Below are positions 45,817-58,864 of a stretch of 64,000 bases of DNA, piece by piece. Every line of letters begins with the position of its first letter. Positions within the stretch are counted from its first letter, which is position 1. Source of the stretch: Escherichia coli (GTDB lineage Bacteria; Pseudomonadota; Gammaproteobacteria; Enterobacterales; Enterobacteriaceae); the NCBI RefSeq assembly GCF_965641715.1, contig NZ_OZ282453.1, one strand, 5' to 3'. The notes under the pieces were generated by a model. The model was not told the DNA's origin, did no database searches, and worked only from the letters and a program-made list of their open reading frames with translations. The translations under genes were made by a program, and so were the position numbers.

Positions 45817-46045
45817 AATCAGGATGAGCTCCTTTTGACCAATCCCAGGAAAATTGTGCGTATTTTACCGGGTAATTGCGCAATGGACAGTTAGGATATG
45901 TTCGAAAAAACAGCAAAAAGCACGATTTCATCTATCTTTGTGCTGTGAAAGTTAATAGTGCACTTGCACTTGAGGTAATCGGCAAATACTCTTAGTGAGT
46001 AAATGTTTGCCGTGGTGGCAAGGTGTTAGAACAACAGAGAATATA

Positions 46046-47044
46046 ATGATGCAGGATTTGCGTCTGATATTAATCATTGTTGGCGCGATCGCCATAATCG
46101 CTTTACTGGTACATGGTTTCTGGACCAGCCGTAAAGAACGATCTTCTATGTTCCGCGATCGGCCATTAAAACGAATGAAGTCAAAACGTGACGACGATTC
46201 TTATGACGAGGATGTCGAAGATGATGAGGGCGTTGGTGAGGTTCGTGTTCACCGCGTGAATCATGCCCCGGCTAACGCCCAGGAGCATGAGGCTGCTCGT
46301 CCGTCGCCGCAACACCAGTACCAACCGCCTTATGCGTCTGCGCAGCCGCGTCAACCGGTCCAGCAGCCGCCTGAAGCGCAGGTACCGCCGCAACATGCTC
46401 CGCGTCCAGCGCAGCCGGTGCAGCAACCCGTGCAGCAGCCTGCCTATCAGCCGCAGCCTGAACAGCCGTTGCAGCAGCCAGTTTCGCCACAGGTCGCGCC
46501 AGCGCCGCAGCCAGTGCATTCAGCACCGCAACCGGCACAACAGGCTTTCCAGCCTGCAGAACCCGTAGCGGCACCACAGCCTGAGCCTGTAGCGGAACCG
46601 GCTCCAGTCATGGATAAACCGAAGCGCAAAGAAGCGGTGATTATCATGAACGTCGCGGCGCATCACGGTAGCGAGCTAAACGGTGAACTGCTTCTTAACA
46701 GCATTCAACAAGCGGGCTTCATTTTTGGCGATATGAATATTTACCATCGTCATCTTAGCCCGGATGGCAGCGGCCCGGCGTTATTCAGCCTGGCGAATAT
46801 GGTGAAACCGGGAACCTTTGATCCTGAAATGAAGGATTTCACTACTCCGGGTGTCACTATCTTTATGCAGGTACCGTCTTACGGTGACGAGCTGCAGAAC
46901 TTCAAGCTGATGCTGCAATCTGCGCAGCATATTGCCGATGAAGTGGGCGGTGTCGTGCTTGACGATCAGCGCCGTATGATGACTCCGCAGAAATTGCGCG
47001 AGTATCAGGACATCATCCGCGAAGTTAAAGACGCCAACGCCTGA
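46046..47044 (+). CDS. zipA: Cell division protein ZipA (332 aa here)
   Basis: N-terminal TM anchor, long P/Q-rich linker, C-terminal FtsZ-binding domain; start at ATG 46046. Confidence 0.88.
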
Positions 47045-47073
47045 TACACTTAAGGCAAATTAACTCCTCTTCG

Positions 47074-47097
47074 AACCCCCGCTTGTCGGGGGTTTTT
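47074..47097 (+). terminator. Intrinsic terminator-like hairpin after zipA
   Basis: cccccg-cttgt-cggggg-ttttt. Confidence 0.45.
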
Positions 47098-51693: not shown

Positions 51694-51781
51694 TGTTCAG
51701 TCCTCGTCACTGTACGAGGTAATATCGGTAGAAGAACAAGGAACTTGAGAAGAAAAATCAATCTTACAAATCGCAGATAGC

Positions 51782-51808
51782 AAAAAAGCGCCTTTAGGGC
51801 GCTTTTTT
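51782..51808 (-). terminator. Intrinsic terminator of tRNA operon (after lysV)
   Basis: aaaaaagcgcc-tttagg-gcgc-tttttt palindrome directly 3' of tRNA-Lys. Confidence 0.6.
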
Positions 51809-51812
51809 ACAT

Positions 51813-51888
51813 TGGTGGGTCGTGCAGGATTCGAACCTGCGACCAATTGATTAAAAGTCAACTGCTCTACCAACTGAGCTAACGACCC
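51813..51888 (-). tRNA. lysV: tRNA-Lys (anticodon UUU)
   Basis: 76-nt cloverleaf; reverse complement reads GGGTCGTTAGCTCAGTTGGTAGAGCAGTTGACTTTTAATCAATTGGTCGCAGGTTCGAATCCTGCACGACCCACCA. Confidence 0.95.
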
Positions 51889-57525: not shown

Positions 57526-58864
57526 CATAAGCGCTAACTTAAGGGTTGTGGTATTACGCCTGATATGATTTAACGTGCCGATGAATTACTCTCACGATAA
57601 CTGGTCAGCAATTCTGGCCCATATTGGTAAGCCCGAAGAACTGGATACTTCGGCACGTAATGCCGGGGCTCTAACCCGCCGCCGCGAAATTCGTGATGCT
57701 GCAACTCTGCTACGTCTGGGGCTGGCTTACGGCCCCGGGGGGATGTCATTACGTGAAGTCACTGCATGGGCTCAGCTCCATGACGTTGCAACATTATCTG
57801 ACGTGGCTCTCCTGAAGCGGCTGCGGAATGCCGCCGACTGGTTTGGCATACTTGCCGCACAAACACTTGCTGTACGCGCCGCAGTTACGGGTTGTACAAG
57901 CGGAAAGAGATTGCGTCTTGTCGATGGAACAGCAATCAGTGCGCCCGGGGGCGGCAGCGCTGAATGGCGACTACATATGGGATATGATCCTCATACCTGT
58001 CAGTTCACTGATTTTGAGCTAACCGACAGCAGAGACGCTGAACGGCTGGACCGATTTGCGCAAACGGCAGACGAGATACGCATTGCTGACCGGGGATTCG
58101 GTTCGCGTCCCGAATGTATCCGCTCACTTGCTTTTGGAGAAGCTGATTATATCGTCCGGGTTCACTGGCGAGGATTGCGCTGGTTAACTGCAGAAGGAAT
58201 GCGCTTTGACATGATGGGTTTTCTGCGCGGGCTGGATTGCGGTAAGAACGGTGAAACCACTGTAATGATAGGCAATTCAGGTAATAAAAAAGCCGGAGCT
58301 CCCTTTCCGGCACGTCTCATTGCCGTATCACTTCCTCCCGAAAAAGCATTAATCAGTAAAACCCGACTGCTCAGCGAGAATCGTCGAAAAGGACGAGTAG
58401 TTCAGGCGGAAACGCTGGAAGCAGCGGGCCATGTGCTATTGCTAACATCATTACCGGAAGATGAATATTCAGCAGAGCAAGTGGCTGATTGTTACCGTCT
58501 GCGATGGCAAATTGAACTGGCTTTTAAGCGGCTCAAAAGTTTGCTGCACCTGGATGCTTTGCGTGCAAAGGAACCTGAACTCGCGAAAGCGTGGATATTT
58601 GCTAATCTACTCGCCGCATTTTTAATTGACGACATAATCCAGCCATCGCTGGATTTCCCCCCCAGAAGTGCCGGATCCGAAAAGAAGAACTAACTCGTTG
58701 TGGAGAATAACAAAAATGGTCATCTGGAGCTTACAGGTGGCCATTCGTGGGACAGTATCCCTGACAGCCTACAAAACGCAATTGAAGAACGCGAGGCATC
58801 GTCTTAACGAGGCACCGAGGCGTCGCATTCTTCAGATGGTTCAACCCTTAAGTTAGCGCTTATG
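57526..58864 (+). mobile_element. IS186 (IS4 family) insertion sequence, ~1339 bp
   Basis: Terminal inverted repeats CATAAGCGCTAACTTAAGGG... / ...CCCTTAAGTTAGCGCTTATG; 10-bp target duplication GGAATTATCC at 57516-57525 and 58865-58874. Confidence 0.88.
57581..58693 (+). CDS. insL: IS186 transposase InsL (370 aa)
   Basis: Translation MNYSHDNWSAILAHIGKPEELD... recognised as IS186 transposase. Confidence 0.9.
   Translation: MNYSHDNWSAILAHIGKPEELDTSARNAGALTRRREIRDAATLLRLGLAYGPGGMSLREVTAWAQLHDVATLSDVALLKRLRNAADWFGILAAQTLAVRAAVTGCTSGKRLRLVDGTAISAPGGGSAEWRLHMGYDPHTCQFTDFELTDSRDAERLDRFAQTADEIRIADRGFGSRPECIRSLAFGEADYIVRVHWRGLRWLTAEGMRFDMMGFLRGLDCGKNGETTVMIGNSGNKKAGAPFPARLIAVSLPPEKALISKTRLLSENRRKGRVVQAETLEAAGHVLLLTSLPEDEYSAEQVADCYRLRWQIELAFKRLKSLLHLDALRAKEPELAKAWIFANLLAAFLIDDIIQPSLDFPPRSAGSEKKN

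Follow-up and report, generated by a model that had tools for sequence, protein, structure and literature searches.

The 332-residue ZipA of Escherichia coli is a common linker-length allele from which the K-12 form was probably derived by deletion

ZipA of Escherichia coli K-12 is a protein of 328 amino acids (PMC6904479). Its P/Q-rich linker is described as an unstructured, flexible tether that runs from the membrane anchor to the FtsZ-binding domain (PMC6904479, citing Ohashi et al. 2002), and the same source argues that the tether can also be compact (PMC6904479). ZipA is anchored in the membrane, and its C-terminal domain holds FtsZ while suspended on a largely unstructured P/Q linker of about 100 residues. 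The paper of Ohashi and colleagues is reportedly the primary one on this tether. A literature search returned no readable paper that measured the effect of ZipA linker length, and the mBio 2021 paper on ZipA does not discuss the linker.

Here we describe the zipA gene encoded in a stretch of 64,000 nucleotides of E. coli DNA (NCBI RefSeq assembly GCF_965641715.1, contig NZ_OZ282453.1), to which we refer as the window and by whose numbering coordinates are given unless another locus is named. The open reading frame starts with ATG at 46046 and ends with TGA at 47042-47044, and in matching genomes the RefSeq annotation of zipA is exactly this 999-nt CDS (Table 1). Its product scored 417.6 bits with the septum_zipA equivalog model TIGR02205, where the cutoff is 119.65, and the match covered residues 4-324, qualifying as full length. 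In the protein alignment residues 1-119 agree fully with K-12 and run through the plan of anchor, charged region and P/Q linker; the transmembrane anchor was placed by this identity to K-12 and by the domain description in PMC6904479. The gene order cysZ-zipA-ligA is that of MG1655 and of the 15 other genomes that we compared, and a search of 5,426 complete E. coli genomes recovered zipA in 5,425 of them. Given the matches to TIGR02205 and to Pfam ZipA_C, the conserved gene order and the annotation throughout these genomes, the gene is, by its sequence, zipA, with all the defining features that could be checked present. As its FtsZ-binding domain is 100% identical to that of K-12 ZipA, the protein would be expected to bind the C-terminal peptide of FtsZ and to be needed for division.

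Table 1. Features of zipA in the window and the corresponding linker spot in other Escherichia lineages.
Feature	Sequence	Coordinates	Strand	Description
zipA CDS	window	46046..47044	+	999 nt, 332 aa plus stop; from the ORF and sequence
N-terminal transmembrane anchor	window	46064..46129	+	residues 7-28; boundaries from K-12 domains in PMC6904479
Charged region	window	46130..46300	+	residues 29-85; boundaries from PMC6904479
P/Q-rich linker	window	46301..46612	+	residues 86-189 (K-12 numbering 86-185)
Codon 120	window	46403..46405	+	CGT (Arg) here, CAT (His) in K-12; sole amino-acid substitution relative to K-12
First 12-nt unit	window	46418..46429	+	GTGCAGCAACCC (V-Q-Q-P); as aligned, missing from K-12-type alleles
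Second 12-nt unit	window	46430..46441	+	GTGCAGCAGCCT (V-Q-Q-P); sole copy kept in K-12
C-terminal FtsZ-binding domain	window	46637..47008	+	residues 198-321; Pfam PF04354 ZipA_C, E = 3.2e-46, 156.8 bits
Linker spot	SCPM-O-B-8794			QPVQQP-QPVQQP, two 18-nt units
Linker spot	E1V33			three 18-nt QPVQQP units
Linker spot	E. albertii			two units, second degenerate
Linker spot	Escherichia sp. MOD1-EC7003			one unit, GGGCAGCAACCG

Between zipA and ligA lies a GC-rich hairpin followed by T5 (47073..47097, plus strand), for which the predicted RNA fold has an energy of -15.5 kcal/mol (z = -3.0, equalled by none of 200 shuffles). It looks like a candidate intrinsic terminator, although it was missed by a scan for consensus terminators; the matching promoter scan returned no sigma-70 site. 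Four open reading frames of 66-112 aa, in other frames or on the opposite strand, run across the linker (46181-46647). They are an expected by-product of stop-poor, CAG/CCG-rich sequence and do not indicate overlapping genes.

The gene of the window and that of K-12 MG1655 share their neighbourhood, their start (ATGATG at 46046), their stop and the first 233 nt, and the anchor, the charged region and the FtsZ-binding domain are the same in protein sequence. The first-pass annotation of the window had noted a ZipA of 332 aa, as against 328 aa for K-12. Both lengths were borne out, the former by the 999-nt ORF on the plus strand and the latter by MG1655 b2412 (NP_416907.1; 987 nt), and when ZipA was aligned across strains the reference was indeed not of identical length. 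What sets the window apart from MG1655 is an extra VQQP unit, Arg120 in place of His120 and eight synonymous differences. Both the DNA and the protein alignments assign the one length difference to a single in-frame 12-nt indel within the P/Q linker, where the window reads CAGCCG-GTGCAGCAACCC-GTGCAGCAGCCT-GCC and K-12 reads CAGCCG-GTGCAGCAGCCT-GCC. The two units have their first 8 nt, GTGCAGCA, in common and agree at 10 of 12 bases; the two differences, CAA/CAG and CCC/CCT, are synonymous and fall in third positions.

The linker (residues 86-189) contains 32 P and 26 Q among its 104 residues (56% P+Q), with five occurrences of CAGCCG and three of CAGCAG. Its initial description as a P/Q-rich tract built of short nucleotide repeats is correct as to composition and motifs but holds only loosely as to repeats, since Tandem Repeats Finder reported no array between 45900 and 47200 even at a minimum score of 30, and the comparison with codon shuffles indicates that the short-repeat content mostly follows the P/Q codon composition. 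Pairs of the same 8-mer numbered 19 in the linker compared with 14.7 ± 6.9 in the shuffles, a difference that is not significant (24% of the shuffles reach 19), and pairs of the same 6-mer numbered 123 compared with 84.8 ± 16.4 (about 3% of the shuffles reach 123). There is one true tandem repeat in the linker, the two 12-nt units at 46418-46441, and it sits precisely at the length difference. We also considered the linker as a simple-sequence contingency locus and rejected this assignment, because there is no array, only two imperfect 12-nt units, and because two length classes cover nearly all the matched genomes.

The distribution of these two classes was estimated over complete E. coli genomes. 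In a sample of 60 rows taken at even steps down the genome ranking, zipA was 999 nt long in 25, 987 nt in 33, 994 nt in one and 888 nt in one. With a 90-nt probe that spans the indel, 5,416 complete E. coli records gave a match, and about 2,335 of them aligned at full length and ungapped, as two-copy alleles do. At least 80% of the probe was aligned in 4,031 of the 5,416 records, and 1,692 of these 4,031 fell in the 80-90% identity band, in which the 12-nt gap is bridged; about 1,385 records aligned only from probe position 39 on, as does K-12 with its His120. About 43% of the 5,416 genomes would thus carry two copies and about 57% one, figures that were estimated from bands of BLAST identity and coverage, together with the 60-row sample, rather than by a per-genome tally, and that agree with the 26 of 60 in the probe's own spread sample. 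Only some one-copy alleles carry His120 (by partial probe alignment, about 1,385 among roughly 3,070 genomes with one copy). A three-copy E. coli allele appeared in neither 60-row sample. Among the carriers of the 332-aa form are many O157:H7 strains, IHE3034, NC101, an O145 strain and the Nissle derivative SYNB1934, and the one-copy carriers include K-12 and BL21. As side observations of the genome search, two zipA matches lay on plasmid-labelled records, one genome carried zipA twice, and a single genome among the 5,426 had no match.

The ZipA of the window is the same in all 332 residues as RefSeq WP_001299866.1, which is annotated in O157:H7 NE 1169-1 and in PapM-32-1, and at the DNA level its zipA is 100% identical to that of PapM-32-1 and 99.7% identical to that of O157:H7. 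The 332-aa ZipA is an ordinary, common allele that is already catalogued in RefSeq. The first-pass annotation had suggested strain-level indel variation by repeat slippage. Its anatomical part stood, as the indel is in frame, 12 nt long and located in a short tandem repeat with 8-nt GTGCAGCA flanks, but the variation is not a matter of single strains, being a species-wide dimorphism.

The perfect match of zipA to PapM-32-1 is a local one and does not make the two strains close relatives, as the flanking 25 kb are about 98.3% identical. Over the 22 kb from 36000 to 58000 the best complete RefSeq E. coli genome, in a collection without Shigella, reached at most 98.9% identity, and the source strain would belong either to a poorly sampled lineage or to a locally mosaic one. 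Compared with PapM-32-1, the window has an insertion of about 1.3 kb between pdeA and nupC (57527-58863), which encodes a 372-aa IS4-family transposase (NF033592, 133 bits; ORF 57575-58693, plus strand). This insertion is a candidate copy of IS186, which presumably is carried by K-12 too between nupC and pdeA (yfeA). A small rearrangement or length difference relative to PapM-32-1 (L073, 25785-25881) was seen at 51770-51830, beside the RtT sRNA and a lysine/valine tRNA cluster, where the two alignment blocks share about 60 nt of the window but leave out about 95 nt of PapM-32-1; it is probably variation in repeat units of the tRNA/RtT region.

Other length alleles of zipA were found in two E. 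coli strains from chicken meat in Laos. EM10-18-28 (L057, 301-1188) has a 111-nt in-frame linker deletion between two CAGCAGCC repeats, leaving 295 aa, and EM03-18-08 (L058, 436-1368) has a 54-nt in-frame linker deletion between GCCGCAGCC repeats, leaving 310 aa. Both alleles are annotated as intact zipA, and from them the essential ZipA appears to tolerate the loss of up to about a third of the linker. Among 48 related enteric species the length of complete ZipA ORFs varies from 307 to 350 aa, nearly all of it in the linker, and all the natural length variation that we observed in ZipA maps there. At the level of sequence comparison, these alleles show that the linker tolerates changes in length. 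In FCI17 (L056, 301-1294) zipA is annotated as a frameshifted pseudogene of 994 nt, in which GTGCAGCAACCC is replaced by GGCGCCC. Because zipA is essential, an assembly error in the GC-rich repeat is more likely there than a real pseudogene.

The outgroups were taken from a degenerate-pattern scan in which each species was represented by one genome. The scan yielded 54 enteric loci, including E. albertii and three other Escherichia lineages, but neither E. fergusonii nor an E. coli reference genome. By the identity of ligA to that of the window, MOD1-EC7003 is the nearest of the four (93.7%), followed by SCPM-O-B-8794 (91.1%), E1V33 (91.0%) and E. albertii (89.4%). Their ZipA proteins (321, 320, 326 and 331 aa, respectively) share the domain plan of the window's ZipA, are conserved in their N- and C-terminal parts, hold a variable number of (Q)PVQQP units at the same spot of the linker and carry further linker indels of 21-42 nt downstream. 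The unit in these lineages is 18 nt long (QPVQQP), in contrast to the 12-nt unit of the window, and is present in two or three copies, with a single one in MOD1-EC7003. In the multi-copy outgroups (E. albertii, SCPM-O-B-8794 and E1V33) the first unit ends in CAA-CC and the last in CAG-CC, like units 1 and 2 of the window. The single unit of MOD1-EC7003 ends in CAA-CCG, whereas that of K-12 ends in CAG-CCT; as the CAA-type end was kept, the single copy of MOD1-EC7003 points to a loss separate from that of K-12.

To place the alleles within the species, a neighbour-joining tree of cysZ-zipA-ligA was built from 4,014 ungapped columns and rooted with E. albertii. The set comprised eight two-copy alleles (seven genomes and the window) and eight one-copy genomes. 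Two-copy alleles form the base of the tree (one group of IHE3034, TUM2830, STEC299 and Ec15103, another of EcPF15 and 181.1), and one-copy alleles are found at the tips, where they adjoin the window and O157:H7. Seven of the eight one-copy alleles share one haplotype, which is set apart from the window/O157 type by the deletion together with two linked derived Ts, at 46279 and 46513. The allele of the window is thus similar to the direct precursor of the K-12 type. The remaining one, LHM10-1, has its single copy on a different haplotype, so that the one-copy alleles were monophyletic in none of the 200 bootstraps. Either a second deletion or within-gene recombination would account for LHM10-1, and its surviving unit is uninformative, as slippage anywhere in the shared 8 nt gives the K-12 product.

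The 332-aa, two-copy form is probably the ancestral one and the K-12 type derived from it by deletion, because the CAA/CAG marks of the outgroups match the units of the window and because two-copy alleles lie at the base of the local tree. Strict parsimony that considers nothing but copy number is ambiguous, as the nearest sampled outgroup, MOD1-EC7003, has a single unit. This single unit also agrees with the opposite direction of change, in which the VQQP unit was recently duplicated by a 12-nt slippage in this strain or a close ancestor, on a K-12-like 328-aa background, and where repeat units match perfectly over 8 nt, slippage can indeed add units as well as remove them. However, a fresh duplication of the K-12 unit would yield two identical units, which would then need chance mutation to the outgroup pattern, whereas the units of the window show two synonymous differences in their 12 positions, and the CAA/CAG one recurs between the corresponding copies of three other Escherichia species. 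The basal position of the two-copy alleles and the spread of the allele, in about 43% of complete genomes and across O157:H7, IHE3034, NC101 and Nissle-derived strains, also speak against a gain in a single strain, a reading that is already largely refuted and that we regard as quite improbable. We give practically no credence to the possibility that the length difference is an artefact of assembly or sequencing or of another choice of start codon. GC-rich, low-complexity repeats are error-prone and the FCI17 frameshift falls at this very unit, but thousands of independent complete genomes show the same in-frame indel, and these population data already refute an artefact. A mechanical ORF from GTG at 45995 would give 349 aa; it is not the annotated gene, for which RefSeq uses the 999-nt CDS, and start, stop and the first 233 nt are as in K-12.

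A reading that we consider less improbable than these two, though still unlikely, is that the spot is a hotspot with repeated, reversible gain and loss of the 12-nt unit, in which case the state of the allele would say little about ancestry. The non-monophyly of the one-copy alleles, with LHM10-1 on a haplotype unlike the main one, is what such a hotspot would produce, and so are the one to three units seen at this spot among Escherichia species, the further in-frame linker deletions in E. coli and the FCI17 frameshift, which maps to the same 12-nt unit. Yet within-gene recombination explains LHM10-1 equally well, and the other seven of the eight sampled one-copy alleles share a haplotype with two linked derived SNPs. 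Three-copy alleles, too, were missing from both 60-row samples of E. coli, and two imperfect units for which Tandem Repeats Finder scores nothing are far from the tract of a typical contingency locus.

The explanation that we hold to be very probable as a whole is that the window carries an ordinary zipA with a common two-copy allele, likely the older one, that the K-12 type lost 12 nt, and that the difference is expected to be neutral. By this explanation, the two-copy form of E. coli would have been derived from a form with two 18-nt units through a loss of 6 nt. The deletion of the K-12 type would then have arisen on a haplotype close to that of the window, with 12 nt lost between the two 8-nt GTGCAGCA repeats. 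Since the indel is bounded by this 8-nt direct repeat, much as the longer deletions in the rarer 295-aa and 310-aa alleles are bounded by theirs, we infer slippage; more broadly, the anatomy suggests that the route may have been replication slippage or unequal recombination at short homology.

The change of four residues makes the tether about 4% longer or shorter, and we expect it to be functionally neutral, because the linker is a flexible tether and its natural length varies widely. That the 328/332-aa dimorphism and the in-frame indels at this spot across Escherichia are not neutral seems to us very improbable, and nothing in the present data favours selection on tether length. If it were true, tether length might be adjusted to such things as the geometry of the envelope or the spacing between the Z-ring and the membrane, and the alleles might stand at intermediate frequency through selection linked to lineage or lifestyle.

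For the use of K-12 as a reference, the comparison has two consequences. Residues past position 126 are numbered four higher in the window than in K-12, and K-12 residue numbers in the FtsZ-binding domain (e.g., M226 and R314) correspond to numbers higher by four in about 43% of E. coli, including O157:H7 and many B2 pathogens. At the zipA linker K-12 would represent a derived, minority-history form, and the length in the reference should not be taken as the ancestral length.
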